From IMG/VR virus record IMGVR_UViG_3300032163_000007, positions 21,587 through 85,586 of that record: DNA of 64,000 bases; one strand, written 5' to 3'. Shown one piece after another: positions 7,873 to 53,723 of this stretch; the first letter of the stretch is position 1; every line of letters starts with the position of its first letter. The notes under the pieces were generated by a model. That model saw nothing but the letters and a program-made list of their open reading frames with translations. It was not told the DNA's origin and ran no database searches. The translations under genes were made by a program, and so were the position numbers. Source of the DNA: a virus (Duplodnaviria > Heunggongvirae > Uroviricota > Caudoviricetes).

Positions 7873-9167
7873 TGGCTAACTATTCGTCAATAACACAATC
7901 CCCAGCAGTAAAGCATTTAGTAATAGACCCCAAGATCAGGGTTTGTGATAAACCTCTAGAGACTATGTCTTTTGAGGAGCTCATAGAGACTCTCAATCTA
8001 AAGGGTTACCGAACACTTAACAACTACATAGCGAAGGAAAAGCTGATAGGTTTCTTGGAGGGTGTAGAAGATGGAACTACTACGATGGACAATCTTCCAC
8101 CGCATATGAGAACTCTTACTGTTGCCAGATATAACACACTGGAAAAAATACACTACCTCAAGCAACGGGGGTACATGACTAATAGGACTATCACAGATAC
8201 TGAGATTAATGATGCCTATGAGTGCTTGAAGAACGGCAGAGAGGTACCTGAGAATAACAGATGTCGTCCTGACGTCTTTAGAAAGAAATCAGACAAGATA
8301 GCAATTTTATCTGACCGAGACGTAGCCCTGTTCGAGAAGAATGGTTTTGTAGACGAGGATATGTTTGCTAGGTATAGCGCCATCTACCGTGAGTTTGTAG
8401 TTAAGCGAACTCCTAGGGAAGACATTAAGAAGCGTTTCGGCGTAGACTATGATGAGATTGGTGAGGCAGTAAAGAAGATTAGAGGCTTTTTATCTGAGCG
8501 CTTTGTTCCACAAGATCAATTGGCGGACGCGCTTGAAGAGGGTAAGAGATCCTTAAATCAATTGTATGACACACTAGCTAAGGCGAATACACGACTTGCA
8601 GAATTTGATCATAAAACAGAGACGTCTTACTACACCTTTATCGAGACATACTTTCCTAAGAATAGCCAGCAAGAGCAGGTAATTATCAAAGGTATTGCCC
8701 GAGAGAGAGCCCTGCTTCTTGATTCCACACTAAAAGTTAGAAGAGCCATCTCTGACGAGCGCAAAGCTCTACTAGAGCTACAAGGACTCTTAGGTGGCCC
8801 CGTAAATCTACTGCAACTCAATGTAGTAAATAATCAGAGCAATCCTACTGCAAAGGGTATTTCAAACATACTTAACGCGGATATTAATGACGCCATTCTT
8901 AGTGGCTTTGATGGTACGGAGATTTCAGAGAAGGCCACAGATGACTTTGATTACGAGAAGTATATCACCAGGCTCAGTCAGGAAGACCAAGATGCTTTCG
9001 AAAAGCTATTAGACAAGATGACCGATTTCTACTTTGAAGATATGGAAGTTAAACAGATGGATGCTATCGAGCATACAAGGAATATGATTAGCCAGAAAAG
9101 AGGAGACTTCTCCTTTCTGGATAAGGTCATAGACGCAGAAGTCTCTGAGCCTGATTATGAGCAGTAA
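7872..9167 (+). CDS. hypothetical protein (lies directly upstream of the terminase large subunit; a small-terminase role is possible but unsupported)
   Basis: Position only; no recognisable motifs. Confidence 0.35.
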   Translation: MANYSSITQSPAVKHLVIDPKIRVCDKPLETMSFEELIETLNLKGYRTLNNYIAKEKLIGFLEGVEDGTTTMDNLPPHMRTLTVARYNTLEKIHYLKQRGYMTNRTITDTEINDAYECLKNGREVPENNRCRPDVFRKKSDKIAILSDRDVALFEKNGFVDEDMFARYSAIYREFVVKRTPREDIKKRFGVDYDEIGEAVKKIRGFLSERFVPQDQLADALEEGKRSLNQLYDTLAKANTRLAEFDHKTETSYYTFIETYFPKNSQQEQVIIKGIARERALLLDSTLKVRRAISDERKALLELQGLLGGPVNLLQLNVVNNQSNPTAKGISNILNADINDAILSGFDGTEISEKATDDFDYEKYITRLSQEDQDAFEKLLDKMTDFYFEDMEVKQMDAIEHTRNMISQKRGDFSFLDKVIDAEVSEPDYEQ

Positions 9168-10785
9168 GCCTATAAGCGCGAGCTTCTTCGACAAGCGAAT
9201 CAATAAAAACGCCGACCTATGGACAATGAAGCACAGGGCTCTCAAAAACAAGCCCTACAGGTTTAAGGGCAAAGCACCTAATCAACAGAGACCCTTTTTA
9301 CAACAGATGCTCAGGGATCCCGCTAGATACAAGTGTTACCAGAAGTCACGACAAGCGGGTGTATCTGAAAATTCAGTATCAGAAGTATTATACCTTTGTG
9401 ATATTCACGCCTATAGAAAATGGGTGTATGTATTCCCAACTTTCGGACAGATGAAGGACTTTGTGCAGACTCGAGTTGAGCCTGCTATTCAGTCCTCACC
9501 CTATATCACTAGTCTACTTGATAAAAAGAAGAACAACGTACACTTAAAGCACATTAAGAACTGCGATATTCTCTTCAGATCTGGTAGTAAAGCAAGCGCT
9601 GGTGAAGGTGTCGACGCAGATGGAGTATTCTTTGATGAACGAGATCGTATGAATACAAACATCCTAGATGCGTTTAAGGAAGGTCTATCAAGCTCAGACC
9701 TAGCTCTAATCAGAGACATTAGCACACCCAGCCTTCCAGGATCTGGTGTTAACATCAGCTTTGAAAAGTCCGATAAGAAATATTGGTTCGTTAAGTGCAC
9801 CAAGTGTGGGCATAAACAAAATCTAACGTACCCCGATAACCTAGTAAAGATTAAGTCAGAAAATAGATACACTTACAAATGCACCAAGTGTGGATGTGTT
9901 GATTGTATTGATAGGTCAGAGGGTGAGTGGGTCCCCGAAATTGTAGGAATACAGACAGAGGTCAGTGGGTATCAACTGTCCCAGTTAGACTGTCCTTGGA
10001 TCAGTGCAAGTGAGATCGTAGCTAAAAAAGATAAAATGTTTCCTCAGTTCTTCTACAACTACGTTTTGGGCAGACCCTACGTAGGTAGCAATCTATTAGT
10101 GCTGCAACAACACATTAATAATTGTATCAGTGATAAGTTTAATATCGTCACTAAGACTGGAAAGATCGTAGCAGGTGTTGACTGGGGAGATACCAGTTGG
10201 ATGGTTATAGGAATGCTTGTGGAGCAAAAGGTAGTTATATTATACTTTGAGAAAATAGCTTTCGCTGATCCAGAGATGCACATTCGACGAGTAAAGGAGC
10301 TTTTCGAGCAGTTTAAAGTGGATCTTATGGTATGCGATAGTGGCTATGGTAAGGATCGTAATGCCGTGCTGTTTAAAGAGCTCCCAGCAGGTAGAGTTGT
10401 TGCATGTAACTATGTAGACACAAGAAATTCAAGAATCATAGACAACGTTTGGGGCACATCTAAGCCGGCGGTTACTTCAAATAGAACCGTTAGTTTGAGA
10501 GTCATGGCAAGAGCTTGGCAGAGACAAGACTTCATATTCCCCCAAAACCTTCTCAATAATCCCAACGCTCTTGACTTCTTTAATCATTTAAAGGCCTTAG
10601 CCATCAAGCTAGAGGAAGTTGAAGAGGGTGTTGTTTTTGAACGTGTGGGGCACATAGGCGCCGACCACTTTTCTCACGCGTGCAATTACCTCTACATTGG
10701 AGCCTTCAAAGTCATGGGTAGATCCTATGTCGGGTTCATGCAAGAGGTCAAAGAAAACGAAAGAGCCCTCCTCGGAGGAAAGTAA
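9157..10785 (+). CDS. terminase large subunit
   Basis: Deviant Walker A 'KSRQAGVSE' (SRQxG[KV][ST] type); Walker B-like 'VFFDERD'; C-terminal acidic nuclease-like region; internal Cys4 zinc ribbon. Confidence 0.6.
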   Translation: MSSKPISASFFDKRINKNADLWTMKHRALKNKPYRFKGKAPNQQRPFLQQMLRDPARYKCYQKSRQAGVSENSVSEVLYLCDIHAYRKWVYVFPTFGQMKDFVQTRVEPAIQSSPYITSLLDKKKNNVHLKHIKNCDILFRSGSKASAGEGVDADGVFFDERDRMNTNILDAFKEGLSSSDLALIRDISTPSLPGSGVNISFEKSDKKYWFVKCTKCGHKQNLTYPDNLVKIKSENRYTYKCTKCGCVDCIDRSEGEWVPEIVGIQTEVSGYQLSQLDCPWISASEIVAKKDKMFPQFFYNYVLGRPYVGSNLLVLQQHINNCISDKFNIVTKTGKIVAGVDWGDTSWMVIGMLVEQKVVILYFEKIAFADPEMHIRRVKELFEQFKVDLMVCDSGYGKDRNAVLFKELPAGRVVACNYVDTRNSRIIDNVWGTSKPAVTSNRTVSLRVMARAWQRQDFIFPQNLLNNPNALDFFNHLKALAIKLEEVEEGVVFERVGHIGADHFSHACNYLYIGAFKVMGRSYVGFMQEVKENERALLGGK

Positions 10786-10811
10786 GTAAATTAACAGCGA
10801 TAGGAGCATTT

Positions 10812-11936
10812 ATGTCGAAAGAGTATTTAATAGCAAATGATCTAGGATATCTTCTAGATCTCATATGGAAGATCCCTCTGCTTACAAAGGCACAGGAAAG
10901 AGAGCTAACAGCTCTTGCAAAAGAAGTGAACAACCCGGATAAAGAAATTGCAAAGAAGGCCAAAGAGGCCAAGGATTTATTCGTTGTCAGTAACATGCGT
11001 CTAGTAATTAACATTGCCAGGCACTACTACCGTAAGGGCATAGAGTTAACGGATCTAGTACAAGAAGGAACATTTGGCTTAATAAGAGCTATAGAGAAGT
11101 TTGATCCCGATAGAGGCTTTAGGTTTAGTACGTACGCAACATACTGGATAGCTACGTTTATCTCGAAGGCTGCACAGAAGTCTACAGCACTATACATTCC
11201 TAATCACGCCAATCAAAAGCTTAACAGGTACTGCAAAATATCAAATGAGCTTATGGAGGCAGCCATAGACACTGACCTAGATAGATATACAATGATTAAA
11301 GAGCGTATGGCAGAGACTACCCTACAACTACCTATAGGAACTACTCTGAAGTCCTTCTTAAATAAATATCCTAATCGTTACCAGTACAACAAGACCTCCT
11401 GTATCTTAACGATAAAAGATGCAATGGAATCAGCAGATATTACTGATCTCCTAGACATGTTTCCTGATCGGTACGACGAGGCAAATCCCGACCAGCTACT
11501 AGAAAATCCTACAAGAGTTTTAATTGCAAAAGCAGTGCAGAGATCTCAGGGTGGAGACAGAGACTTTGAGCAGAGTGAGGAACTCTACAGAATAACACAG
11601 ACATTCTTTAGCTTAGAGGATAGTGTGGGTGAAAGCAACTTTACATTTGGCGATATTATCGTTGAAGAAGAATCCGCTGGAATGGAAGAAAAGACTCAGC
11701 TTCGAGAGGATGTAGAGATCGGAATGAAAGAAGCTCTTAATGACAAAGAGTTCTTTGTTCTGAAAGCTAGATATGGACTATTTGATAGTGACATTCTTGA
11801 GCTCGAAAAGATATCAGAAGTATTGGGAATCACAAAAGAGCGTATTCGTCAAATAGAGAGCACAGCAGCTAAGAAGCTTAGAGCATATTTTAAAGAGACG
11901 GAGTACGCATTACATTACGGAGGTAGGCATGTATAA
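10812..11936 (+). CDS. sigma-70 family RNA polymerase sigma factor, with a long insertion between regions 2 and 4
   Basis: Region 2 'RLVINIARHYYRKGIELTDLVQEGTFGLIRAIEKFDPDRGFRFSTYATYWI'; region 4.2 HTH 'ISEVLGITKERIRQIESTAAKKLR'. Confidence 0.8.
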   Translation: MSKEYLIANDLGYLLDLIWKIPLLTKAQERELTALAKEVNNPDKEIAKKAKEAKDLFVVSNMRLVINIARHYYRKGIELTDLVQEGTFGLIRAIEKFDPDRGFRFSTYATYWIATFISKAAQKSTALYIPNHANQKLNRYCKISNELMEAAIDTDLDRYTMIKERMAETTLQLPIGTTLKSFLNKYPNRYQYNKTSCILTIKDAMESADITDLLDMFPDRYDEANPDQLLENPTRVLIAKAVQRSQGGDRDFEQSEELYRITQTFFSLEDSVGESNFTFGDIIVEEESAGMEEKTQLREDVEIGMKEALNDKEFFVLKARYGLFDSDILELEKISEVLGITKERIRQIESTAAKKLRAYFKETEYALHYGGRHV

Positions 11937-12195
11937 ACCAAAACCAGCAACTTATGAGACCATCAAGGATTTTTCTACTAATCAGATAGTGTATGCCTGC
12001 TGTCAGCAAGCCCAGCACAAGGACCGAGTTACAGGGGTAATTTGGGATGTTGCTCTACAGAAGTCAGCTAAGGCTTATCCCAGAGAATCCAGCTATCAAG
12101 CGGCTAAGATTCTATTAAAGGAAAAAGGGCTAGATAGCGCGAAAAAGGTGGGTTTTTTGGTTGACTACTTCTGGCAAGTTACGAAGCATAATTAA
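11929..12195 (+). CDS. hypothetical protein
   Basis: Listed ORF; overlapping start. Confidence 0.35.
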   Translation: MYKPKPATYETIKDFSTNQIVYACCQQAQHKDRVTGVIWDVALQKSAKAYPRESSYQAAKILLKEKGLDSAKKVGFLVDYFWQVTKHN

Positions 12196-12210
12196 GCTAC
12201 GTCCTCTTAA

Positions 12211-12420
12211 ATGAAAGACATCGAACTCGAAGATACTGACCTAGAAAACTTATATATTGCTAGGTTTGATAAATTGGTAGAAAAGCATGTAGCCGTGAGG
12301 TTACTACAGGATCTAAAGAAAGAATTTCCTAGTGTATTTTTCATTGCTGCGTATGACGATACGAAGCTGAAGATTGCCCATGTTAAGAATGACAAAAAAA
12401 TAATAATTAGCGAGGTATAG
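12211..12420 (+). CDS. hypothetical protein
   Basis: Listed ORF. Confidence 0.3.
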   Translation: MKDIELEDTDLENLYIARFDKLVEKHVAVRLLQDLKKEFPSVFFIAAYDDTKLKIAHVKNDKKIIISEV

Positions 12421-12422
12421 TT

Positions 12423-12860
12423 TTGGGTATTAAGTGTGGCATAACCTGTCAAAATTGCTTTGAAAAGATCATATATGATATGGGGTCTAAAGAGCTTATT
12501 AAGTGCCCTAAATGCAAGGAAACCCAAAAAGAGAAGAAGAGGTTCAAGTGCTCAGTCTGTGATAGTGAGGATATGATTAGGGTTGATATAAATGGGGAGA
12601 TCCCCGAGATAATGTGTGAGTGTGGTGGGCTAATGACCACGGGGCATATAGAGGGAGCACCTGCGGTGCACTACAAGGGTAGTACAGGATTTCGTACCAG
12701 TGGTGGGTTAAATGGTGGCTGGGACTGGGGTAAACCGAAAGCAAATCCTCTTGATGGCCATAGAATGGGTAAAGAAGAGAAGAAGCATATTGAAGATCAG
12801 ACAACCAAGAAATATGTAAAACAAATAGAAGGAGCGAAAAAAGATGCAAGTACAAGCTAA
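12423..12860 (+). CDS. zinc-ribbon protein
   Basis: Four CxxC pairs (CQNC, CPKC, CSVC, CECG). Confidence 0.4.
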   Translation: MGIKCGITCQNCFEKIIYDMGSKELIKCPKCKETQKEKKRFKCSVCDSEDMIRVDINGEIPEIMCECGGLMTTGHIEGAPAVHYKGSTGFRTSGGLNGGWDWGKPKANPLDGHRMGKEEKKHIEDQTTKKYVKQIEGAKKDASTS

Positions 12861-13191
12861 TGATAATGAGACATCCACAGCAGTGGATATAGCGGATCTA
12901 CCAGGTTCAACAGCAACAAAACAACCAAAGTACACGCCACCACCACAGCAGCCAAATAGGGCTCAACGCAGGCTTAACACCAGGGGAGAGCGACATCGCC
13001 TAACAAAGAAAGTTCGTCACGTAAGAGGCAAGATGCTGTATGGCATGTTTGATATCACAAGCATTATGAAGCTGGGCATTTTTACACACCCAGGCACTGC
13101 CAGTCTAGCCATCAAAGCCGGCCTCAATGCCTCTAAGCTCATCGCTCTTCGTGCAGAACATGAAAAAGAGAAAGCGGAGGCAGTAGCATAA
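12844..13191 (+). CDS. hypothetical basic protein
   Basis: Listed ORF; Pro/Gln-rich and basic. Confidence 0.3.
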   Translation: MQVQANDNETSTAVDIADLPGSTATKQPKYTPPPQQPNRAQRRLNTRGERHRLTKKVRHVRGKMLYGMFDITSIMKLGIFTHPGTASLAIKAGLNASKLIALRAEHEKEKAEAVA

Positions 13192-13192
13192 C

Positions 13193-16100
13193 ATGATAAC
13201 AGAGAGAATCAAGTCTTTGGTAAGTACAAAAGGTATTAAGAAGGTAGTAAAGCGTAATGGTGAAACTGTTCCATTTAAGAAGGATAAAGTAGCAGAAGCC
13301 ATAAAGAAGGCAGCAGCATCTGTCAGTATTGATGATGTAGCAGCACTTAAGCTAGTCACTGAAGAGATCCTTGCAGAGATAAATAAATGGAATAGTAAAA
13401 CCATCCCAGCAGTAGAAGAGATTCAAGACTTAATAGAAAACACTTTAATTAAAAATAATCATGCGGAGATAGCTAAAGCATATATCCTTTACAGGGAGCA
13501 ACGTAGCAATATCCGAGACAAGGAAAAGCTGTTGCTAGACATCAGCAAGACTATGGATGGATACCTGGACCAGAGCGATTGGCGTGTTAACGAGAACAGC
13601 AACATCAATTATTCTCTGGGTGGGTTGATCCTACACAATGCAGGTACAATCACAGCCAATTATTGGCTCAATAATGTTTATCCCAAAGATGTAGCAGATG
13701 CCCATCGTAATGGTGACTATCACATCCATGACATGTCCGTGTTCGGTCCTTATTGTGCCGGCTGGTCGCTCAGACAACTCCTAGAAGAGGGTTTCGGTGG
13801 TGTATTGAACAAGATCACATCTAAACCAGCAAAACACCTTTCTACGCTTGTTTCACAAATGGTTAACTTCTTGGGTACACTTCAGAATGAATGGGCTGGT
13901 GCTCAGGCGTTCTCAAGCTTCGACACCTACTTGGCTCCTTTTGTCAGAGTAGATAATCTCACATACAAAGACGTTAAGCAACAAATTCAGAGCTTTATTT
14001 TTGGAATCAATACTCCGTCACGCTGGGGCAGCCAAGCCCCCTTTACCAACATCACGTTGGATTGGGTGGTACCTACGGACTTAAAAGACTACCCAGTAAT
14101 CATTGGTGGTAAGTCGCAAGACACTACGTACGGTGATTATCAGGTAGAGATGGATATTGTTAACAAGGCTTTCCTAGAGGTCATGCTTGAGGGTGATGCT
14201 GAAGGCAGAGGTTTTGCGTACCCAATTCCAACGTATAACATTACGAAGGACTTTAATTGGGATCATCCTAACTCTGACCTGCTATTTGGTATGGCAGCTA
14301 AGTATGGTACTCCCTATTTCCAGAACTTTATCAATAGCACACTGAACCCAGTAGATGTGCGTTCAATGTGCCCTCTAGCGGCTACGGAAAAGGTACTTAT
14401 TAAGTCTTCCCGGGGTAGAGGCTTGGAGTATGTGTCCATAGGCAACATTGTGAACGCCCAAGTTTTTGACCCTAATAGAGTTTATGAAGTCTACTCCGAT
14501 GGTAAGTTTGTGGAGGGTAGATTCCAGAGGTATGACGACCAGCAAATGCTGAGGGTTACTTTAGAAAACAACCACCAAATCACCATGAGTAAGAGTCACT
14601 TAAACTTTGTTAGGCTGTTTAAGGGGGAGGAAATAGTACTTGAGGGGGCGCATCTGAAGGACTCCATGTATCTTCCCTATAGTTTGAACTCCCTTAAGGG
14701 AGAGGGTGGAGACTTTGCTCTAGGACTTCTCGTAGGAGCTTTCGCCGGAGATGGGTCTCTCTGTGAAAGAGAGGGTGGATGGAGTATAAATCTATCCCTT
14801 AACAAAAATCAGAAAACTACTTTAGCACTAGAGTTAGAGAATATCTGCAAGAACGTCTTCGGCGCCTTAGTCAGTTACACAGAGTCCGAGACCTCGGAGC
14901 TACTATCCATGAGAGTTAATTCCCAAGCAGTAGTAGGATTAGTAAGTGACTTTGTGGACAGCAAGGGCTTAGATAAGTCCTACAAGGCTCGCGTCTTTGG
15001 AATGAGTGAGGGGTTCCGTAGGGGAGTGCTAGATGGGCACACTAGAACTGATGGTAACTTCGACAGGGAGACCCGACGCATTTACTCATCGTCCCCAAAA
15101 ATGGTAGAGTGCCTAAATATGTTAGCATCCTCTTTGGGCACAGTGACCTCCGTGTACGAGCACGAGTTAAATAGGGAGTCGGGAGCTCTGAGTAATAATT
15201 CAAACTATTGTGTAACCTTCCCGGAGTACAAGAGGGATAGCTATGGGAATCGTTGGTTTAAGGCTGATAACAAGCTGTGGATGAAGATTAAGTATGTGGA
15301 GGAAGTTCAAGGAAATGTAGGGTACTGTCTCGAGGTACTTGATGACGAACCTATGTTTACAGTAGGCACTACAGGCATACTCACGCATAATTGTCGCCTT
15401 CAGCTGGACAAACGTGAACTACGTAATCGTGGTGGTGGTCTGTTTGGTGCTGATGAGATGACAGGCAGTATTGGTGTAGTCACTATTAACTTGGCTCGTA
15501 TTGGGTACCTGGCTAAGACCAGAAAAGAGTTCCTTTCTAGGTTAGATCACCTAATCGACTTGGCTAGTGAGTCTCTAACAATTAAGCGTAAAGTCTGTAA
15601 CCAGCTTATGGAGGGCGGTTTATACCCCTATACAAAGCGTTACTTGGGTAGCTTTAAGAACCACTTTAACACAATTGGAATCAACGGTATGAACGAAGCC
15701 CTTCTCAATTTTATGGAGAAGGACATCTCTGATCCCAAGGCCAAACAGTTTGCTAAGGATATTCTTAATCATATGAGAACTCGTATGCAAGATCTCCAAG
15801 AAGAGACAGGAGACCTCTATAACTTAGAAGCTACTCCAGCCGAGTCTACTTCTTACAGGCTAGCAAAGATCGACAAAGACAAATATCCAAATATCATATG
15901 TTCTGGTACATGCGACCCATACTATACAAATAGTACGCAGCTACCAGTTGGGCACACCCCAGATATATTTGAGGCGTTAGATCATCAAGATGACCTACAG
16001 ACTCTTTATACTGGTGGTACGGTTCTGCATGGCTTTTTAGGAGAGAGACTGCAGGGCTCGGAAGCGTGTAAGAAGTTAGTGAAGAAAATTCTTTACAACT

Positions 16101-16261
16101 ATCACATTCCGTATCTTACTATATCTCCAACCTTCTCTATCTGTCCTACTCACGGATACTTAGCAGGTGAGCACTTCTTTTGCCCGAAGTGTGAGCAAGA
16201 AGAACGAGTATTGTTGCAAGGCCAGATTAGCAACCTAGAAACAGAACTGGAAAAAATGTAG
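13193..16261 (+). CDS. nrdD: anaerobic ribonucleoside-triphosphate reductase NrdD (class III) with an N-terminal ATP-cone and an in-frame intein; C-terminal zinc site; the glycyl-radical domain is absent from this ORF
   Basis: ATP-cone 'VKRNGETVPFKKDKVAEAIKKA'; NrdD-like core; C-terminal 'CPTHG...CPKCE'; an intein interrupts it (see mobile_element); no RVxGY motif in this ORF. Confidence 0.8.
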   Translation: MITERIKSLVSTKGIKKVVKRNGETVPFKKDKVAEAIKKAAASVSIDDVAALKLVTEEILAEINKWNSKTIPAVEEIQDLIENTLIKNNHAEIAKAYILYREQRSNIRDKEKLLLDISKTMDGYLDQSDWRVNENSNINYSLGGLILHNAGTITANYWLNNVYPKDVADAHRNGDYHIHDMSVFGPYCAGWSLRQLLEEGFGGVLNKITSKPAKHLSTLVSQMVNFLGTLQNEWAGAQAFSSFDTYLAPFVRVDNLTYKDVKQQIQSFIFGINTPSRWGSQAPFTNITLDWVVPTDLKDYPVIIGGKSQDTTYGDYQVEMDIVNKAFLEVMLEGDAEGRGFAYPIPTYNITKDFNWDHPNSDLLFGMAAKYGTPYFQNFINSTLNPVDVRSMCPLAATEKVLIKSSRGRGLEYVSIGNIVNAQVFDPNRVYEVYSDGKFVEGRFQRYDDQQMLRVTLENNHQITMSKSHLNFVRLFKGEEIVLEGAHLKDSMYLPYSLNSLKGEGGDFALGLLVGAFAGDGSLCEREGGWSINLSLNKNQKTTLALELENICKNVFGALVSYTESETSELLSMRVNSQAVVGLVSDFVDSKGLDKSYKARVFGMSEGFRRGVLDGHTRTDGNFDRETRRIYSSSPKMVECLNMLASSLGTVTSVYEHELNRESGALSNNSNYCVTFPEYKRDSYGNRWFKADNKLWMKIKYVEEVQGNVGYCLEVLDDEPMFTVGTTGILTHNCRLQLDKRELRNRGGGLFGADEMTGSIGVVTINLARIGYLAKTRKEFLSRLDHLIDLASESLTIKRKVCNQLMEGGLYPYTKRYLGSFKNHFNTIGINGMNEALLNFMEKDISDPKAKQFAKDILNHMRTRMQDLQEETGDLYNLEATPAESTSYRLAKIDKDKYPNIICSGTCDPYYTNSTQLPVGHTPDIFEALDHQDDLQTLYTGGTVLHGFLGERLQGSEACKKLVKKILYNYHIPYLTISPTFSICPTHGYLAGEHFFCPKCEQEERVLLQGQISNLETELEKM
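14369..15391 (+). mobile_element. intein (341 aa) with a LAGLIDADG homing-endonuclease domain inside NrdD
   Basis: Starts with Cys after '...VRSM'; ends '...GILTHN' followed by the extein Cys ('CRLQLD'); LAGLIDADG motifs 'LLVGAFAGDGS' and 'VLDGHTRTDGNF'. Confidence 0.75.
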
Positions 16262-16271
16262 GAGGAAAAAA

Positions 16272-16466
16272 ATGGGAAAGACAAAAGAACAGTTATTAGA
16301 AGAGATTAAAGTAATGAAAGATAAGCTAGCTAGTGTAAAAGGTAAGCCGGCAGAAGTTTACACACGGATTGTAGGATACTACAGAGCAGTTCAGAACTGG
16401 AATCTTGGTAAAAAGTCAGAGTATGCTGACAGAGTAGAATTCGCAGAGAAGCCCGAAGCGGCCTAA
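16272..16466 (+). CDS. NrdD C-terminal glycyl-radical domain encoded as a separate 64-aa ORF
   Basis: 'TRIVGYYRAVQNWNLGKKSEYADRV' matches the NrdD glycyl-radical motif (RVxGY...WNxGKxxE...R); own RBS GGAGG 6 nt upstream; different frame from nrdD, whose stop is 10 nt upstream. Confidence 0.7.
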   Translation: MGKTKEQLLEEIKVMKDKLASVKGKPAEVYTRIVGYYRAVQNWNLGKKSEYADRVEFAEKPEAA

Positions 16467-16501
16467 AACAGATCCTATGTACCCACGGTACAAAAGGTAA
16501 A

Positions 16502-16523
16502 GGGGCCGCCGTACGGCGGCCCC
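16502..16523 (+). other. GC-rich stem-loop GGGGCCGCC-gtac-GGCGGCCCC, no T-run
   Basis: Perfect 9-bp inverted repeat between the nrdD module and the next gene. Confidence 0.4.
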
Positions 16524-16543
16524 AGACACAATAAGGAGTAGAT

Positions 16544-17950
16544 ATGTACACACTGAGAGACATGGATTATGATGATTCTGAGGGAGAGGTTGGCGTTAAT
16601 GAGGAGTTCGAGACAGCAGCAGAGGCAGTAGAATGGATCGCGGATAACTTCGAACCAGAGGATGTCCCTGTGTTACGTAGCCTAAGATTTACCATCCCCG
16701 TAGAGAATAGAAGACTCAGGCCCTCCAGAGGTGTTAATATAGAGAAGCAATACTGCAAGTATGTTAAAGGTTTTCGACTAGAGTCCGACTACGAGCAGCC
16801 CGTATCGGAGAGCTACGCGGAAGAGGAATATATTCCCGTAGAACCTGAACCCGAGCCTGAAATAGGCGAGCTAACCAAAGAGGAGCTTCTTAAAGAGAAT
16901 CAGAGGCTAAAGAAGTCTAACCAGCTACTCATGGATAAGAATAGGCTTAATAACAAGGACTACCGAGGGACAACTAGGCAAGAAAACGCTCTAGAAGCTT
17001 ATACCAAGGCTATTTCTGTGGCGCTTCAGGGAGCATCCCTAGGTAGGTTCACAATAAAGCATAATACAATTGACGGAGACGCTCCTGTGGGTATCGTGCA
17101 ATTATCTGACATACACTTTAACGAACTAATCAATCTCAAACACAACAAGTATGACTTCTATGTAGCAGCGAAGCGTCTAGCTAAGTTAGCAATGCACGCC
17201 AAAACTCATTTCAAGGCTTGGGGAGTCAAAAGGATTTTAGTAGCATGTACAGGTGACCTTATTAACAATGATAACATTCCTGATAAGTTACTTAATGCTG
17301 CTACAAACAGAGCTAGAGCGAGTGTGCTCGCCACCTACGTATTGCAGCAGTTTATTATAGATCTCAACCAAGACTTTGACGTGAATGTCACAGGGGTAAG
17401 TGGTAATGAATCTCGTATCAAAGATGAGATTGGCTTCAGTGATGCCATCGCAACAGATAACTATGACAGCATGATTCTACAAATGCTTCACCTATTATTC
17501 AAAGACACAGATGTAAATGTATTCTTCTGCGGGCATAATGAGGGCTTTGTAGACGTAAATGGTAAAACGATAATGCTTATGCATGGTCACGTGCTCAAGG
17601 GTACGGACATTGAAAAATATGTGCAGCAGATTCGAGGCAGGCATTCAAGCAGAGGCCTTAACGTAGACTATGTCTTAATGGGGCATATGCATAGTGCTCG
17701 AATCGGGGATCAGTATGCTAGATCATCTTCATTATGTGGAGCTAATGATTATAGCGAGGATTCTCTGAACTTAAGTAGTAGAGCCAGCCAGAATATCTTC
17801 TTAGTAGATGAATCTGCAGTGCATGGTATTAGAGTAGACCTACAAGACACAACTGGGATCAGGGGCTACGATATAATTAAAGAGCACGAGATGTACAACG
17901 CTAAGTCCCACGATAAGTCTGTTAGATACGACAACATCTACAAGATTTAA
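16544..17950 (+). CDS. calcineurin-like metallophosphoesterase
   Basis: Motifs SDIHF, GDLIN, GNES, MHGH, GHMH; acidic N-terminus followed by a coiled coil. Confidence 0.55.
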   Translation: MYTLRDMDYDDSEGEVGVNEEFETAAEAVEWIADNFEPEDVPVLRSLRFTIPVENRRLRPSRGVNIEKQYCKYVKGFRLESDYEQPVSESYAEEEYIPVEPEPEPEIGELTKEELLKENQRLKKSNQLLMDKNRLNNKDYRGTTRQENALEAYTKAISVALQGASLGRFTIKHNTIDGDAPVGIVQLSDIHFNELINLKHNKYDFYVAAKRLAKLAMHAKTHFKAWGVKRILVACTGDLINNDNIPDKLLNAATNRARASVLATYVLQQFIIDLNQDFDVNVTGVSGNESRIKDEIGFSDAIATDNYDSMILQMLHLLFKDTDVNVFFCGHNEGFVDVNGKTIMLMHGHVLKGTDIEKYVQQIRGRHSSRGLNVDYVLMGHMHSARIGDQYARSSSLCGANDYSEDSLNLSSRASQNIFLVDESAVHGIRVDLQDTTGIRGYDIIKEHEMYNAKSHDKSVRYDNIYKI

Positions 17951-17971
17951 GCCATAATTAAGGATAGAGAC

Positions 17972-19678
17972 ATGGAAAACACCAAACAACTCATTGACCG
18001 TAATCTTAGAGAAGCTAACAAAGCAGTGGAGGATTCAAAAAGAGCTATGAATTTACTAAAGAGTTCCGACTCAAATGACAATTTCGGTAACAATACCATT
18101 GGTATTAACCAACAGGTAAAGACGGTAGATGAGCAAGCTCAATTAGGAACGGAACTAGTACAGGTTCACGTTGATCCTACAACTAAGACATTTCCATTTG
18201 GTGCATTTATTGATCCCTATATTACAGTTGATGCTGGTGGGTATGTAAAGAAGCAATCCCTACTCGACTTTAAGACACTGAGAAAAATTGCTAAAAAAGT
18301 AGAGCCCATATCTGCAATTATTAAATTGAGAAGCAACCAAGTTGGAGCCTTCTCCCACGTAAGTCATGACACAGATGGTGTAGGCTTTAAGATCATGTTA
18401 AGGAATCAGACCAAGCATCCTACACCACAAGAATTAGTTGAGATGCACGCAATTGAGGAGTTCTTACTCAACACAGGCTTCTCACACAACCCGAATAGAC
18501 AGGATAACTTCGAAGCATTCCAACGTAAAATTGTTAGAGACAGATTAACTCTTGATGCTATATCAGTGCAGCTAGTTGCTAATAAAAAAGGTGAACTAAC
18601 TGAATTCTGGGCTATGGACGCAGGTACAATCTTCTATGCAGTAGAACACTACAATGCAAGAAGAACCGGCACCTACCAGCCTATCCGATACATTCAAGAA
18701 CGTGACGGCCAAATTGTTGGTGAGTTCACGGGACTTGAGATGGCTTATGGAGTTGCTAATCCCACTACAGATCTAGAAAATCAGGGATATGGCGAAAGCG
18801 AAGTGGAACTCCTAATCGAAACTGTCACAGCTTACCTTTTTGCGAGAGACTACAATAAGTACTTTTTCTCAAAGAATAGTGTACCAGCAGGTATCATTAC
18901 CCTGGTAGGTAAGTATGGCGAACAAGAATTACAAGACTTTAAACGCCAATGGGTAGCACAGGTGCAAGGCACAAATAATGCATGGCGTGTTCCTATCGTA
19001 ACTGCTGAAGAGGGCAAGGGTGCCACATTCACTCCTTTTAAGACATCGCACAAGGATGCCGAGTACATGAACTACTTGGAGTTCCTAATTAAGATTACTG
19101 CAGCTGTTTATCAGACGTCACCAGAGGAAATCAACTTTGCGATGGGGTCTGGAGTTCAATCCTCTCCTATGGTAGCTAAAGAGGGTGGTCAAGCCATCCT
19201 CGCTTCCAAAGATAGGGGCTTAGTTCCACTGTTGAGGTTCCTAGAGAACTTCTACAATAAACACTTGGTACAGAGGCTAAATCCTAAATATAAGTTTATG
19301 TTTACAGGGACGCAGCCTGAGGATAGACAAGCTAAGGCCGATTTAAAGAATAAAAGAAGCTTCTATCTGACGATTAATGAATTGCGAGCAGAAGATGACC
19401 TCAAACCTATTAAACTCAAAGACGTCGAAGATCCGATGGACCTACCCAACAATCCCGCCCTTTTGCAGGCTTGGCAGGCTATGCAAATGCAGAAGCAGCA
19501 AGAAGAGATGCAAGCTCAGCAGCAGGCCACAGGTGATGGTGAGGCGGCACTTGCGGAGGACGAAGGGGAGCCAGGCAGTACTACTGGCGGGGAAGGAGCG
19601 GAAGCAGATGCTCCTGAAGTTATTGGAGAGGGCGCCCCTCTAGCCAAAAGCTTTATGGTTGAGACTTCCTTAGACTAA
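17972..19678 (+). CDS. hypothetical protein with an acidic C-terminal tail (a portal protein is possible, but unverified)
   Basis: 568 aa; Gln/Glu-rich acidic C-terminus; no diagnostic motif recognised. Confidence 0.3.
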   Translation: MENTKQLIDRNLREANKAVEDSKRAMNLLKSSDSNDNFGNNTIGINQQVKTVDEQAQLGTELVQVHVDPTTKTFPFGAFIDPYITVDAGGYVKKQSLLDFKTLRKIAKKVEPISAIIKLRSNQVGAFSHVSHDTDGVGFKIMLRNQTKHPTPQELVEMHAIEEFLLNTGFSHNPNRQDNFEAFQRKIVRDRLTLDAISVQLVANKKGELTEFWAMDAGTIFYAVEHYNARRTGTYQPIRYIQERDGQIVGEFTGLEMAYGVANPTTDLENQGYGESEVELLIETVTAYLFARDYNKYFFSKNSVPAGIITLVGKYGEQELQDFKRQWVAQVQGTNNAWRVPIVTAEEGKGATFTPFKTSHKDAEYMNYLEFLIKITAAVYQTSPEEINFAMGSGVQSSPMVAKEGGQAILASKDRGLVPLLRFLENFYNKHLVQRLNPKYKFMFTGTQPEDRQAKADLKNKRSFYLTINELRAEDDLKPIKLKDVEDPMDLPNNPALLQAWQAMQMQKQQEEMQAQQQATGDGEAALAEDEGEPGSTTGGEGAEADAPEVIGEGAPLAKSFMVETSLD

Positions 19679-34051: not shown

Positions 34052-34555
34052 ATGATCATAAGAAAAAGTTTTAAGTTAGAGATGGGTCATAGAGTAGTAG
34101 GTTCCTATACAACGGGATGCCAAAGCAATCACGGACATAGTGCCGTAGTGGAGCTGTTTTTAGAGGCTAAGACATTGGATCACACAGGAATGATTATTGA
34201 TTTTACTGAGGTTAAAGATCTTCTTGGAGACTTTTTCAACCAGTTCGATCACCGCACACTAGTATGGGACCAAGACGTTGAGTATTTGGAAGCTCTGGAG
34301 AAGCTAGGTTTTGCTCTCATGATAGTGCCTTATAACAGTACTGCAGAGAACATCAGTAAGCACATGTACCAGTTTGTTAGAGAAGCCCTTAAGAACCGCG
34401 TTAGAGTGGCAAGTGTGCGCTACCACGAAACTGTCACGGGTTATGCTGAATACTTTGTGGAAGACTACGACAGAGACGCCATGAACAACAACCTGTTTGA
34501 TCTCAGTCATGTGTTCTTGTCAGAAGCTACATGCATTAAGGAGTACCAACGATGA
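34052..34555 (+). CDS. queD: 6-carboxy-5,6,7,8-tetrahydropterin synthase QueD (PTPS family)
   Basis: 'EMGHRVVGSYTTGCQSNHGHS' (H..C..HGH zinc/catalytic motif); 'TGMIIDFTEVKDL'. Confidence 0.75.
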   Translation: MIIRKSFKLEMGHRVVGSYTTGCQSNHGHSAVVELFLEAKTLDHTGMIIDFTEVKDLLGDFFNQFDHRTLVWDQDVEYLEALEKLGFALMIVPYNSTAENISKHMYQFVREALKNRVRVASVRYHETVTGYAEYFVEDYDRDAMNNNLFDLSHVFLSEATCIKEYQR

Positions 34556-35220
34556 AAATAAATACAATATACCCAGCAATCGAAGGAGAGGGAGTCCGAG
34601 TAGGCACTCCTCAGCTATTCATCCGTACACAAGGATGTAGTATTGGATGTAAGAATTGTGACACTGTGGGATCTTGGAATCCTAACACAGGCACAGAAAT
34701 GTCAGTGAAAGAAATCTTTCAAAAGGTCATTGATAGTGGTCTTGACTCAATTAGCATCACCGGAGGCAACCCCCTAGAACAGGATCTCTACGACCTAGTG
34801 GGATTACTTCACCGAAGAAATTTTACAGTTAATATCGAGATCACTGGCCAAGACAATGACGAAGAGGTTCTTGACTTAGTAGACTTTATTAGTTGTGACA
34901 TCAAGACTCCGTCCACTGGGGTTACAGCTAATCTAGATATTATCGACGACATCTTAAAAAGCTATGGCCACTGCACACAGATCAAGTGCGTATGTGCTGA
35001 CCAAGCTGACTTAGACTTCATTATCGATTGTTACAACCGGTTCAAAGATAGACTTGATTACCATATGGTTATCACGCCTTGTTGGACAGAGCGCGCAAGT
35101 GCTGCTGATGTTGAGTTTATTGATCATATCATGAAAACTGTTATGGATAACAACTACCACATGCGAGTCATTGTACAACAGCATAAGCTACTCTTCGGAA
35201 GTAAACGCGGCGACGTATGA
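34552..35220 (+). CDS. queE: 7-carboxy-7-deazaguanine synthase QueE (radical SAM)
   Basis: 'LFIRTQGCSIGCKNCDT' matches the QueE CxxxCxxC-D motif; 'ITGGNPL'. Confidence 0.75.
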   Translation: MKINTIYPAIEGEGVRVGTPQLFIRTQGCSIGCKNCDTVGSWNPNTGTEMSVKEIFQKVIDSGLDSISITGGNPLEQDLYDLVGLLHRRNFTVNIEITGQDNDEEVLDLVDFISCDIKTPSTGVTANLDIIDDILKSYGHCTQIKCVCADQADLDFIIDCYNRFKDRLDYHMVITPCWTERASAADVEFIDHIMKTVMDNNYHMRVIVQQHKLLFGSKRGDV

Positions 35221-35357
35221 TTGAGCGTTTATTAAAGCAACTACCACTAAGCGTCAGGAGAAAGATATATGAGATCCTTCGCGAGGAGTTTGAGTGGACC
35301 AGAGAAAAGATTGATGCAGCAATAGACAAGATTATAGAGGAGAACCAACCAAAATGA
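35217..35357 (+). CDS. small hypothetical ORF (46 aa), overlaps the queE stop and the PRTase start
   Basis: Found by eye between listed ORFs. Confidence 0.25.
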   Translation: MIERLLKQLPLSVRRKIYEILREEFEWTREKIDAAIDKIIEENQPK

Positions 35358-35782
35358 ATGTTATTACTTGGAAGCAGTATTTAAAAGATATTGATAAATT
35401 GGCAAGTAAGATTACTGAGAAGTTTGATTACATCTGGGGCATTCCCAGAGGTGGGCTAATTCCTGCTGTAATCCTAGCTCACAAGCTTGATATTCCTCTC
35501 GTGTCTGATAGAAAGATGTTAAGCATGAGGAATGATTATAAGCTTCTAATTGTGGATGACCTCTACGAGACAGGTAAAGCTCTATGTGAGGCAATAGCAA
35601 TGCTACCTTCAAAGGTTAGCTGGAGATCTGCTGTAGTTTATACCAAAGCGGATAAAGAGATCGCACACTATTCTGGTCCTCTGATGGATAAAGATGCTTG
35701 GATTGTGTTTCCCTACGAAAAAGTAGAAAACGCTGAAACAGATAGTGTGGAATATCAATTAAGTCGAAAGGATAAAGTATGA
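35354..35782 (+). CDS. type I purine phosphoribosyltransferase (Gpt/XGPRT-like)
   Basis: 'WGIPRGGLIPAVILAHKLDIPLV' and PRPP motif 'LLIVDDLYETGKAL'; 142 aa, the size of E. coli Gpt. Confidence 0.6.
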   Translation: MNVITWKQYLKDIDKLASKITEKFDYIWGIPRGGLIPAVILAHKLDIPLVSDRKMLSMRNDYKLLIVDDLYETGKALCEAIAMLPSKVSWRSAVVYTKADKEIAHYSGPLMDKDAWIVFPYEKVENAETDSVEYQLSRKDKV

Positions 35783-51374: not shown

Positions 51375-51539
51375 ATGGATCAGATCACAATAGTAGCATA
51401 TTCACATGGGGAAACGACGAGAGTTAGCTTTCCTGATGACGCAGATATCTACGAACTCGCAGAAAAGTTCAGAGTGATTGCATTGGGTTTAGGCTACCAT
51501 AATGAGAATATCAAAGAGATTCTCCCAGAAGCGGAATAA
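51375..51539 (+). CDS. small hypothetical ORF (54 aa)
   Basis: RBS AGGAGG; fills the gap before nrdG. Confidence 0.3.
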   Translation: MDQITIVAYSHGETTRVSFPDDADIYELAEKFRVIALGLGYHNENIKEILPEAE

Positions 51540-52237
51540 TGAAGGGCTGGCAAAAGACAAGTCTTATTGATTTTGGGGACGAGATAGTTTCGATGTTTTT
51601 CTATGGAGGCTGTAACTTTAGGTGTCCTTTTTGTCACAACAGGGATCTGGTGCTTAATCCGGACAGTTTGCCGGATATCGCCGAAAGCGATGCATTCCAG
51701 TATCTCAGTGACAAAAGAAAGATATACGATGGGGTCGTTATAAGTGGTGGGGAACCTACACTTGACCCCCGTATCGCTGAGATCTGTGGGATGTTTAAGA
51801 GGTCCGGCTTTACAATAAAACTGGACACAAATGGAAGTAGACCCGAAGTACTTAAGAGCTTGGTTGACGCCAAGCTGGTTGATTACGTTGCGATGGACAT
51901 CAAAACATCGCTTACTAAGTACCCACAGGCTGCACCTTTTATTGCTGCCGAGGATCTTGTAGCTGATGTCAAGCAGTCTGTGGGTTTTCTGATAAATGGC
52001 AAAGTGGATTACGAGTTCCGGTCTACCATATATCCTCCTTGGTTTGAAGCCGAGGACTGGGAGGAGATAGCTGAGTGGCTCAAAGGAGCCAAGCGCTACT
52101 ACTTACAGCAGTTCAATCCCAAGAATACTTTGGATCCCGAAGCTACGAAGGTAATTCCTCACAGAAAAGACTATCTAGAGATTAGAGCTGAGTATTTATC
52201 AGGATTTATGGATCTCTGCGAAGTCCGACTCATCTAA
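51539..52237 (+). CDS. nrdG: anaerobic ribonucleotide reductase activating protein NrdG (radical SAM)
   Basis: 'GGCNFRCPFCHN' CxxxCxxC cluster; 'ISGGEPTLDP'; NrdD is present in the same genome. Confidence 0.7.
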   Translation: MKGWQKTSLIDFGDEIVSMFFYGGCNFRCPFCHNRDLVLNPDSLPDIAESDAFQYLSDKRKIYDGVVISGGEPTLDPRIAEICGMFKRSGFTIKLDTNGSRPEVLKSLVDAKLVDYVAMDIKTSLTKYPQAAPFIAAEDLVADVKQSVGFLINGKVDYEFRSTIYPPWFEAEDWEEIAEWLKGAKRYYLQQFNPKNTLDPEATKVIPHRKDYLEIRAEYLSGFMDLCEVRLI

Positions 52238-52268: not shown

Positions 52269-53723
52269 ATGAAATACAATTTATACCCACAGCATCAGCA
52301 CGATTTTTTAGCCAGACTAGATACTAGCGTAAAAGCTAGAGGTGGTAACCTATTCTTTGTTGGTGGTTGTGTTCGAGATGCCCTTCGTGGTAATTCAAAT
52401 CCCAGCGATACTGATATTCTGGTAGTTCGAATCACTGATGAGCAGTTTAGAGAGGCTCTAGAAGAGTTTAAGAATACTCCATCATTTTCAACCATTACCT
52501 ACGACTTTGTAGGTAAGAGCTTCGGCGTGTACAAAGTTAGTGTGACTTCAAAAGTTGAGGGAGATTACTTCATCGGTAATGGTGTCAGTAGTGTTATTGA
52601 CTTTGCATTCCCCCGTAAAGAGGTAAGTACTGGTGACGGCCACAGAGACTTTGAGAATGAGTTTGATCCATTTATGCCCATCGAAGAAGACCTAGCACGT
52701 AGAGATTTTACTATGAACGCCATTGCTATCAGCTTTGATGGTAAGACCATCGTTGACCCCTTCAAAGGAAGAACTGACATTAACAAAGGCATACTACGAA
52801 GCATTGGCACTAATTCTATCAGTGAGGACTACTTGAGAGCGCTTCGAGGTGTTCAGTTCGTAGCTAGGTTTAACCTCTATATCAATGCTGATACTCTGAA
52901 GCAGATTCAAGACAATGTGTACCTAATTGATACTATTTCTGAGGATCGTATCCGCCAGGAACTGGCGAAGCTGCTTAAGGCTCCATTTGTTCATAGAGGG
53001 TTTGAACTCCTCAAGAATACTGGGTTGTTACAAGCCATTTGTGAGCCTCTATACAATTGCAACGCAAACAACAACTACAACTGGTTGCATCACAAGTACA
53101 ATACATACTGCCATACCATTCAAGCCATTGACAATTTGTCAAGAACCTGTGATCCTGTGGTAGCAGTTGCAGCAATGCTCCATGACATTGGAAAGCCTCT
53201 AACTGAGAGCGTAGATGAGTATGGAATCTATCACAACTACCGCCACGAAGAGGCTAGTGTAAAACTGGCCAAGGTTTGGCTGGAAAGCTACCACTACAGT
53301 AATGACGACACCGAACAGATCTTATGGCTGATTGCCAATCATATGGGACAACCTCATAGAGAGGCTAGTCCAGGACGACGCAAGCAGATCAAGAAGCTGC
53401 TGAGATCAGCTAAAGATAAGTCATGGGTAATCAACCTATTCCTACTAAAACAAGCAGACTCAAACGCCAGCCTGGACTTTGTTCATACCAATGAGGTCAT
53501 GGACTGGATCTCTACGATGACTGATATCATTGAGCAGCAAGAGGCATTCTCACTTAAAGACCTACAGGTGCATGGCTTTGATATGCTGGAACTTGGGCTT
53601 AAGGGACCAGCTATTGGTCACATGCTTAACAAGCTACTCACTGACGTAATTGAGGGAGACATTGTCAACGAAAGAGATGCTCTACTGGACTACGTGAAAG
53701 TTACCCAACTGGTTGTAGTATGA
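52269..53723 (+). CDS. cca: CCA-adding tRNA nucleotidyltransferase with C-terminal HD domain
   Basis: Head motif 'FVGGCVRDALRG...DTDILV'; 'RRDFTMNA'; HD motif 'AAMLHDIGKP'. Confidence 0.75.
   Translation: MKYNLYPQHQHDFLARLDTSVKARGGNLFFVGGCVRDALRGNSNPSDTDILVVRITDEQFREALEEFKNTPSFSTITYDFVGKSFGVYKVSVTSKVEGDYFIGNGVSSVIDFAFPRKEVSTGDGHRDFENEFDPFMPIEEDLARRDFTMNAIAISFDGKTIVDPFKGRTDINKGILRSIGTNSISEDYLRALRGVQFVARFNLYINADTLKQIQDNVYLIDTISEDRIRQELAKLLKAPFVHRGFELLKNTGLLQAICEPLYNCNANNNYNWLHHKYNTYCHTIQAIDNLSRTCDPVVAVAAMLHDIGKPLTESVDEYGIYHNYRHEEASVKLAKVWLESYHYSNDDTEQILWLIANHMGQPHREASPGRRKQIKKLLRSAKDKSWVINLFLLKQADSNASLDFVHTNEVMDWISTMTDIIEQQEAFSLKDLQVHGFDMLELGLKGPAIGHMLNKLLTDVIEGDIVNERDALLDYVKVTQLVVV

Follow-up and report, generated by a model that had tools for sequence, protein, structure and literature searches.

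A phage member of a conserved family of split class III ribonucleotide reductases, with a 64-residue protein predicted to carry the glycyl-radical loop

RESULTS AND DISCUSSION

The virus record IMGVR_UViG_3300032163_000007 (Caudoviricetes; IMG/VR) contributes the 64,000-nucleotide stretch analyzed here (positions 21,587 to 85,586 of the record, hereafter the window), which belongs to a contig of 171,862 bp and carries an nrdD gene for an anaerobic, or class III, ribonucleotide reductase (RNR). Class III RNR cannot do without a glycyl radical, and the large nrdD product of the window has no loop to bear one. Sequence comparisons confirm that the glycyl-radical tip of NrdD is here a separate gene product of 64 residues, encoded directly downstream. 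We consider it highly probable that the two open reading frames (ORFs) specify the two subunits of an obligate, naturally split class III RNR, which would be joined by complementary helices and activated by the phage's own NrdG. Judging from its homologs, the two-piece NrdD is an old and inherited arrangement, widespread in spirochaetes and other anaerobes and not peculiar to this phage, and the window holds a phage member with the minimal, 64-residue form of the small subunit.

The glycyl-radical loop is separated from the NrdD core

The nrdD core gene (13193..16261, plus strand) encodes a precursor of 1022 residues that comprises an ATP-cone, a barrel, an intein, a metal site and a C-terminal tail helix, and lacks the glycyl-radical loop. 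It belongs to the NrdD family according to both Pfam (NRDD, PF13597; E 2.8e-173, with the profile covered up to position 532 of 562) and NCBIfam (PRK08270 with 1060 bits against a cut-off of 548, and TIGR02487 with 467 bits against a cut-off of 326), and the ATP-cone is recognized at residues 16-105 (13238..13507, plus strand; Pfam PF03477, E 4e-21). The C terminus reads ...FFCPKCEQEERVLLQGQISNLETELEKM, or ...SICPTHGYLAGEHFFCPKCEQEERVLLQGQISNLETELEKM in a longer excerpt, and is followed by a TAG stop at 16259-16261. A first-pass annotation, made from the sequence alone, had described this ORF as stopping just past the metal site without a radical motif. Both the ORF reading and a regular-expression search agree with that description: the expression R..G[YFW] finds in the core only 'REGGW' at residue 526, within the intein, and the RxxGY loop that an NrdD usually bears on the same polypeptide is found on the separate 64-residue ORF.

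The metal site is kept on the core, where the sequence C984-x2-H987...C997-x2-C1000 (16142..16192, plus strand) points to a Cys3His arrangement. This region aligns with the Zn-site region of Thermotoga maritima NrdD (4COI), to about residue 616, and the four metal-site positions, numbered C251, H254, C264, and C267 in an alignment of 21 split and fused cores (A2), are invariant. The last 22 residues of the core, EQEERVLLQGQISNLETELEKM (16193..16258, plus strand), form a tail with a heptad helix that is exclusive to split NrdDs.

The small gene (16272..16466, plus strand) begins 10 nucleotides (nt) past the core stop, in the +1 frame, and has its own ribosome binding site (RBS), as had been stated in the first reading of the sequence. 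Read from the sequence, the junction (16259..16271, plus strand) consists of the TAG stop, a GGAGG RBS at 16261-16265 that shares the last base of the stop codon, and a 6-nt spacer of six A's that leads up to the ATG; a strong Shine-Dalgarno sequence precedes 36 of the 67 genes in the window. The product, MGKTKEQLLEEIKVMKDKLASVKGKPAEVYTRIVGYYRAVQNWNLGKKSEYADRVEFAEKPEAA, matches positions 532-562 of Pfam NRDD (E 1.1e-8; 34.7 bits against a cut-off of 26.2), which upholds the earlier claim of homology to NrdD C termini, and no models other than NRDD in Pfam and those for NrdD in NCBIfam recognize it. Since the core accounts for the NRDD profile up to position 532 and the small ORF for positions 532-562, the profile is cut cleanly at the break. 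On the T. maritima structures 4COI and 4U3E the break maps with the core reaching about residue 616 and the small-protein profile spanning residues 612-645. Within the small protein, a predicted N-terminal heptad helix (residues 5-20; 16284..16331, plus strand) lies ahead of an invariant glycine, G24, and the glycyl-radical motif R32-I-V-G35-Y36 follows at 16365..16379 (plus strand), reading RIVG35YY with the G35 codon at 16374-16376. In two alignments of small proteins (A1 and A3), G24, R32, G35, Y36, R38, G46, and R54 are invariant.

The core is further interrupted by an intein of about 340 residues (14372..15391, plus strand), which sits between both cysteines of the finger-loop motif M-C|C-R; intein-free homologs read RSMCCRLQLD at this site, and the MCCR finger loop of the core would be restored only upon splicing between the two cysteines, which we assume to take place. 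The intein starts with Pro rather than Cys or Ser, has a Cys in a block-F-like 'GYCLEV', ends in ILTHN followed by Cys, contains a LAGLIDADG-like 'LGLLVGAFAGDGS', and scores 19.2 bits with the NCBIfam model intein_Cterm (cut-off, 15.6). We take it to resemble a class 3 (WCT-type) intein. The same intein allele occurs at two other loci (L158 and L037), which comprise one fused viral NrdD and one Treponema split core.

The split defines a conserved family

The match of the small ORF to other short proteins is far beyond chance. Among 1.84 billion representative proteins, searched exhaustively with HMMER, there are 1,659 relatives, of which the best 150 are all 51-255 residues long, with the match beginning in the first 25 residues in nearly all of them. 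A profile search of a 5.8-billion-protein set (E <= 1e-8) yielded at least 6,837 clusters at 90% identity, and here the best 120 clusters all fall between 57 and 106 residues. NCBI labels some of the family members 'anaerobic ribonucleoside-triphosphate reductase', for example a 67-residue protein of Treponema pedis, and others hypothetical; neither NCBIfam nor PHROG has a dedicated model for the small proteins. Against the PDB, phmmer of the small ORF returned only chance matches to cryptochrome/photolyase, and a profile search is required to reveal the relation to NrdD there. A word-indexed homolog search found only the protein itself and one fragment, the other relatives being recovered by the exhaustive search. 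The nearest relative (P0003; 67% identity) lies on a 790-bp contig, and no relative closer than 65% was found in the metagenome scan.

Scanning one genome per species, we obtained 596 relatives, and the best 80 of these are nearly all from Spirochaetota, among them the isolate Treponema lecithinolyticum ATCC 700332; Margulisbacteria/Termititenax, Elusimicrobiaceae, and an archaeal metagenome-assembled genome (MAG) are represented as well. The comparison of fused and split arrangements among homologs, which the first-pass annotation had proposed as a check, reveals a real split. At 64 bacterial genome loci, mostly of Spirochaetota but with some of Margulisbacteria and Termititenax, we observe a core that ends past the metal site, then the small gene, and then, in most cases, nrdG. 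The distance from stop to start varies between -14 and +346 nt (median, 44.5), the three relative frames occur 12/28/24 times, and every one of these small genes is preceded by its own Shine-Dalgarno sequence. The metagenome scan added 63 split loci with relative frames of 23/21/19.

In a simple neighbor-joining tree of 76 core C-terminal halves, computed without support values, every split core falls in one clade, with the fused ones outside. The window core is sister to the cores of a Termititenax MAG (L041) and a Margulisbacteria MAG (L066), with which it shares up to 72% identity over its N-terminal half and 66-67% over the C-terminal one; the identity to bacterial split cores is 60-72%. 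We refer to the group delimited in this analysis as helix-type split NrdD. Of its features, the window shows a heptad core tail, a core that groups with the split cores, and a small protein in which a heptad helix and an invariant glycine are followed by xxxEVYxRIVGYYRxxxNWNxGK, but it lacks the redoxin domain on the small subunit. Both the inherited, ancient nature of this architecture and the two extra complementary helices had been missed in the first-pass annotation.

Most bacterial small subunits are larger than that of the window: 60 of the 64 measure at least 150 residues and bear a redoxin (glutaredoxin/thioredoxin-like) domain with CPxC. The 64-residue protein has no such domain, in common with other short forms (L019, L053, and the 67-residue T. 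pedis protein), and none was found elsewhere in the window. A glutaredoxin/thioredoxin-like domain also follows the glycyl-radical loop in a fused phage NrdD of 802 residues (L001; 2036..4444). The sequences suggest that the attached redoxin domains could serve as a built-in reductant for this NrdD subfamily.

Among GenBank phages, megablast of the region gave no match, and tblastn with three small-protein queries retrieved two to three fused NrdDs each and, at that sensitivity, no split in named phages. Scanning viral sequences with the core as a single query sequence likewise yielded no match.

A second way of dividing NrdD is seen among viral cores. Of 78 viral core loci, 18 lack the glycyl-radical loop and have short, different tails, e.g., CPLCDDELVAKKKRALLKCQKAGTGK, some of which end with an extra CxxC. 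In at least 10 loci an ORF of about 45-65 residues for a glycyl-radical domain lies just downstream, e.g., MENQKEQEIELKDEERQPCEVWSRVMGYHRPV..., and in three loci it lies 3-5 kb upstream. These loci (L169, L182, L190-L192, L195, L197, L201, L206, L217, L232, L235, and L240) frequently lie on viral contigs that measure 100-175 kb. At the boundary of metal site and glycyl-radical loop, NrdD thus seems to be generally permissive to division.

Two additional helices flank the break

In fused relatives the spacing across the region of the break is constant, with exactly 8 residues from the last CxxC to the motif arginine in all 24 that have a CxxC knuckle (a count that leaves out L127, whose variant knuckle is not scorable); the core tail helix is absent from 24 of 24. 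The one-chain NrdD L001 (MT835493, a human-gut phage contig) reads ...CPKCGQPAEVYSRITGYYRPVQNWN... across the equivalent region. The window has about 40 extra residues at this point, of which 22 close the core (the tail given above) and 23 (MGKTKEQLLEEIKVMKDKLASVK) open the small protein, after which the sequence picks up as G-KPA-EVY-T-RIVGYY. The split thus goes beyond the insertion of a stop codon into an ordinary gene.

Both extra segments are conserved in a position-specific manner. Counted from the last CxxC, the core tails of split pairs are hydrophobic at +8, +12, and +15 (100% each) and at +22 (94%), and the window tail fits this pattern with L, I, L, L, and M at +8, +12, +15, +19, and +22. 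Counted back from the invariant glycine (G24), the small proteins are hydrophobic at -2, -5, -9, -12, -16, and -19 (78-100%). Proline and glycine together account for about 1%. These are heptad patterns with spacings of 3 to 4 residues that mirror one another when counted from the junction, and the window fits both of them. In contrast to this position-specific conservation, the hydrophobic moment over the whole segment is not significant for the core tails. When AlphaFold2 is supplied with a 79-sequence alignment, it folds residues 5-20 of the small protein into a helix, at a predicted local distance difference test (pLDDT) score of 87-90.

We also observe reciprocal covariation between core position +19 and small-protein position -19 across 113 unique pairs, without phylogenetic correction. 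In 102 pairs the core residue is charged (basic in 100, acidic in 2) and the small-protein residue hydrophobic; in the remaining 11 the core residue is hydrophobic and its counterpart basic or polar; and no pair is hydrophobic or basic on both sides. The minority state, found in the window, the Margulisbacteria pair, and spirochaete lineages, is accompanied by shorter tails. This covariation fits an antiparallel side-by-side packing that would place the far ends of the two helices next to each other. Moreover, because G24-xxx-EVY is the counterpart of CxxC-G-xxx-EVY in fused enzymes, G24 has to return to the metal knuckle. An antiparallel orientation of the two helices is thus likely on the strength of these patterns.

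A proposed two-subunit enzyme

Taken together, the split, its conservation, and the helices at the break lead us to propose the following assembly. The spliced core would supply the ATP-cone, the barrel, the MCCR finger-loop cysteines, and the Cys3His metal knuckle, and the 64-residue protein would supply only the radical-bearing loop with G35 and the short tail that follows it. Core and small gene would be expressed from one transcript, since no promoter-like site was found between them and the RBS overlaps the stop. The subunits would then associate noncovalently, with the amphipathic C-terminal helix of the core packing, most likely antiparallel, against the N-terminal helix of the small protein. 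Such packing would set G24 beside the last CxxC of the core, so that the ancestral ...CxxC-G-xxx-EVY-x-R-I-V-G-Y... geometry is regained. NrdG would act in trans and put the radical on G35, and the loop would subsequently enter the barrel and lie next to the finger-loop cysteine, the arrangement of a one-chain NrdD; the activity of the enzyme would accordingly depend on the small protein. Beyond gene anatomy and conservation, this mechanism is modeled by analogy on the established mechanism of class III RNR.

The 'glycyl radical domain' of Prevotella copri NrdD comprises a structural Zn site, a buried glycine loop, and a surface tail; it is very mobile and becomes invisible with dATP bound (PMC11226230). 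From this layout and from the mapped break, which lies between the second metal knuckle and the glycine loop, the natural cut falls inside the glycyl radical domain, with the knuckle remaining on the core and the loop and tail set free.

A candidate activase is encoded in the window. The nrdG gene (51539..52237, plus strand), whose product matches Pfam Radical_SAM (S-adenosylmethionine) and Fer4_12, lies 35 kb downstream of the nrdD pair. Its product is 39% identical (E 3e-48) to an NrdG that adjoins a fused nrdD and, when used as a query, hits the gene that immediately follows the small one at most bacterial split loci, with up to 49% identity, including 48-49% for the NrdGs of the Termititenax and Margulisbacteria MAGs. 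By sequence, we regard it as the cognate radical-SAM activase of the pair.

Several points weigh against the two-subunit reading, or at least against parts of it. The nrdG gene is unlinked from the nrdD pair, at a distance of 35 kb, which bears on their co-regulation, and the splicing of the intein out of the core is an assumption. Without a redoxin domain, the phage version may act somewhat differently from its bacterial counterparts. AlphaFold2 folds the glycine loop of the isolated small protein as helices, which is probably non-native, and the only joint model, a single-sequence prediction of the concatenated junction, gives a helix, a four-residue break, and a helix at a mean pLDDT of 59, a low confidence at which the predicted packing is unreliable. 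The covariation statistics, furthermore, ignore the kinship of the loci, and a charge-swapping pair (core +16 and small -8) is off the antiparallel register and would suit a parallel arrangement.

Alternative explanations for the split

The break could in principle be an artefact or a recent accident, either a 1-nt error of sequencing or assembly within the A-rich junction or a newly arisen frameshift that turned nrdD into a pseudogene. The junction, GAAAAAATGTAGGAGGAAAAAAATG, does hold two A-runs, a +1 shift would give ...ELEK-CRRKKMGKT..., and no close relative of the phage was found for comparison, the best matches of the small protein being 65-67% identical. Nevertheless, the same break recurs at more than 125 independent loci with unrelated junctions, with gaps of up to 346 nt and in every frame; the start of the small ORF coincides with the start of the family's proteins; the roughly 40 extra residues are the two conserved helices of the family and not noise; and the window core nests within the split clade. 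The exact 64-residue protein was moreover predicted on three contigs (in assemblies of ENA, JGI, and Logan), although a sample is given for the displayed contig only and the independence of the samples is not established. We therefore give an artefact or accident almost no credence.

A second possibility is that the ORFs are joined during or after translation into one active chain, by a +1 programmed frameshift, by read-through, or by split-intein trans-splicing. The ORFs are adjacent and in a +1 relation, an A-run lies ahead of the stop, and nrdD holds an intein that is presumed active. Read-through of the TAG, however, would add only 15 residues before a TAA and never reach the glycyl-radical loop, and the homologous small genes, which lie in any frame, up to 346 nt off, or unlinked, are beyond the reach of recoding. 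By inspection, the core tails end variably and have no conserved nucleophile after CxxC, and the small-protein N termini lack the conserved His-Asn plus Cys/Ser/Thr required of a split intein; with these splicing motifs missing on both sides of the break, a split intein was rejected. Such joining into a single chain strikes us as extremely improbable. The variety of gaps and frames excludes sequencing error, frameshift pseudogenes, programmed recoding, and trans-splicing as general explanations. The earlier view that neither an intron nor read-through accounts for the split is supported, and a single indel does not explain it either. An endonuclease insertion of the Aeh1 NrdA type was likewise considered and rejected, there being no room for it in the 10-nt gap of the window or in the gaps of up to 346 nt in the homologs.

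The first-pass annotation had likened the small protein to GrcA/YfiD, the spare glycyl-radical protein of Escherichia coli. The likeness holds insofar as the 64-residue ORF with its own RBS encodes a free-standing small protein with a glycyl-radical loop. It fails in that the protein has no homology to GrcA or to the C-terminal domain of pyruvate formate-lyase (PFL; Pfam Gly_radical), and in that the core, its partner, lacks any radical domain that could be replaced. The small protein appears to be the sole carrier of the glycyl radical in this enzyme, which would make it an obligate subunit and not a spare.

It could still act mainly as a spare, an exchangeable cartridge made in excess that re-arms oxygen-cleaved split cores of the phage or its host. 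Oxygen cuts glycyl-radical enzymes at the radical glycine (PMC13450708), and a split enzyme would lose 64 residues only; the radical domain of a one-chain NrdD is highly mobile (PMC11226230); and a strong GGAGG precedes the small gene. Two complete T. pedis genomes have the small gene together with nrdG and, in the 6 kb searched on each side, no nrdD core; at about 55 IMG/VR loci neither core nor nrdG occurs within 10 kb of the small gene, whose neighbors at the three loci checked belong to phage replication modules; and no helix-type core is among the best 80 of the 297 core matches in IMG/VR, nor do any of these 80 lie on the contigs with core-less small genes. Against this, a core without a radical domain would require the small protein from the outset, the overlap of stop and RBS and the conserved operon order suggest near-stoichiometric synthesis, and the conservation of complementary helices speaks for a stable complex and against free exchange. 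In addition, viral contigs are incomplete, and unlinked cores do occur (L191, L195, and L197). We judge a role mainly as a spare to be quite improbable, while noting that it overlaps with the two-subunit reading and does not contradict it; the cheap replacement of just an oxygen-cleaved 64-residue piece would be a plausible benefit of a two-subunit enzyme.

The loci with a small gene and no core deserve description in their own right. In T. pedis (L247 and L248; CP004120 and CP061839, 6001-6951) and at locus L024, a gene of 67 codons is followed by nrdG 1 nt on. The viral loci (L003/L094, L007, L088, L090-L107, and others) carry helix-bearing radical-loop genes of 50-190 residues, and the neighbors at the three that were checked (L092, L094, and L104) encode DNA polymerase, primase/helicase, UvsX, and SbcC. 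Hypothetically, phages with only the small gene might rely on a core provided by the host. Taken further, the small protein could be an exchangeable, separately activated radical cartridge with interchangeable phage and host versions, an idea that we put forward tentatively and think rather unlikely. NrdG would then activate the small protein off the enzyme, and, during infection, phages equipped with the small gene alone would re-arm or commandeer the split NrdD core of the host. If true, this would be the first spare-part system of any RNR, and the phage of the window could swap oxygen-cleaved or dATP-released cartridges without rebuilding its intein-containing core.

Genomic context of the nrdD pair

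The nrdD pair lies between genes for the terminase large subunit (9157..10785) and a sigma-70-like factor (10812..11936) on one side and the portal gene (17972..19678) on the other, and this stretch (9157..19678) is an unusual site for a gene of nucleotide metabolism. A perfect hairpin of 9 bp, all G+C (GGGGCCGCC GTAC GGCGGCCCC; 16502..16523), is located 3' of the small gene. Its T-run is on the minus strand only and all neighboring genes are on the plus strand; a role as terminator of the nrdD operon is uncertain. Directly behind nrdG lies a gene for a CCA-adding/poly(A)-polymerase-like enzyme with an HD domain (52269..53723). Elsewhere in the window, genes for a QueD-like 6-pyruvoyl-tetrahydropterin synthase (34052..34555), a QueE-like radical-SAM protein (34552..35220), and a phosphoribosyltransferase (35354..35782) are clustered, which suggests a 7-deazaguanine pathway.

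Implications for annotation and enzymology

A conserved split NrdD is a real finding of specialist interest, confirmed across homologous loci, and the assembly mechanism and the role in repair are put forward as proposals. For annotation, it means that a loop-less 'NrdD' in Spirochaetota, among them oral and veterinary Treponema, and in many phages is not a pseudogene, and that its neighbor of 60-190 residues, today labeled 'partial' or hypothetical, would be an essential subunit. For enzymology, a radical loop on a 7-kDa protein would offer a clean system for studying how an activase reaches a loop that is buried in a barrel, and the same system would suit the question of whether an oxygen-damaged anaerobic RNR is repairable; the split might in itself ease repair after oxygen damage or the access of the activase. 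In phage biology, it points to a radical-loop gene that is able to travel by itself.

Comparison with known systems

To our knowledge, all characterized glycyl-radical enzymes have the radical glycine on the catalytic chain. The one-chain NrdDs of T4 (1H78/1H79), T. maritima (4COI/4U3E), and P. copri (8P23) belong to the same Pfam NRDD/PRK08270 family as the window pair, with which they have in common the ATP-cone, the barrel, the metal site, the RxxGY loop, NrdG, and, provided that the intein of the window core splices, the finger-loop cysteines. Unlike in these enzymes, the glycine loop and tail of the window are a separate product, and about 40 extra residues that form a helix pair lie at the break, where fused relatives have the fixed 8-residue link. 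In the open-access full-text literature we found no paper that describes a class III RNR split so as to free its radical loop, subscription-only papers being outside the search. A conserved free radical-loop subunit of class III RNR thus apparently has not been described before, whereas split RNR genes are already familiar.

Functional parallels are GrcA/YfiD of E. coli and Y06I of phage T4, which are likewise small free radical-loop proteins that serve a large barrel protein in trans, Y06I being also phage encoded. They are, however, PFL-type proteins of another Pfam family that replace a damaged domain, whereas the small protein of the window is NrdD-type and its partner has no such domain. 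According to a 2026 review, spare-part proteins are known for formate lyases only, and the PFL spare parts are the sole radical domains described as free-standing (PMC13450708).

The finger loop links the window core to the thioredoxin-dependent NrdDs of the Neisseria bacilliformis type, which have a double-Cys finger loop and share MCCR with the core once its intein is removed. The redoxin-bearing small subunits of bacteria fit the disulfide-based reduction route of this type (PMC9669993). Bacterial split enzymes have the redoxin fused to their radical subunit, and the 64-residue form of the window has none.

According to a 2013 survey (PMC3653736), nrdD is the RNR gene that is most frequently split or interrupted in phages, whether through introns, through inteins, or through fragmentation that is unexplained. 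The interrupted nrdD genes of phages phiAS4, 949, and c-st involve introns, inteins, or unexplained fragments in single genomes and not a conserved radical-loop subunit, and other split RNR genes are the class II NrdJa/NrdJb of Pseudomonas aeruginosa and nrdJ-a/-b of Thermus phage phiYS40. A further precedent is the class Ia enzyme of Aeromonas phage Aeh1, in which the tails at the break point of NrdA-a and of NrdA-b are indispensable interaction domains (PMC3045599). As in the window, an RNR catalytic subunit is encoded there by two consecutive genes with new C- and N-terminal tails. In Aeh1, a class I catalytic body is split by the homing endonuclease gene mobE in a single phage; in the window, by contrast, the break sets the radical loop apart, involves no mobile element, and is conserved across phyla.

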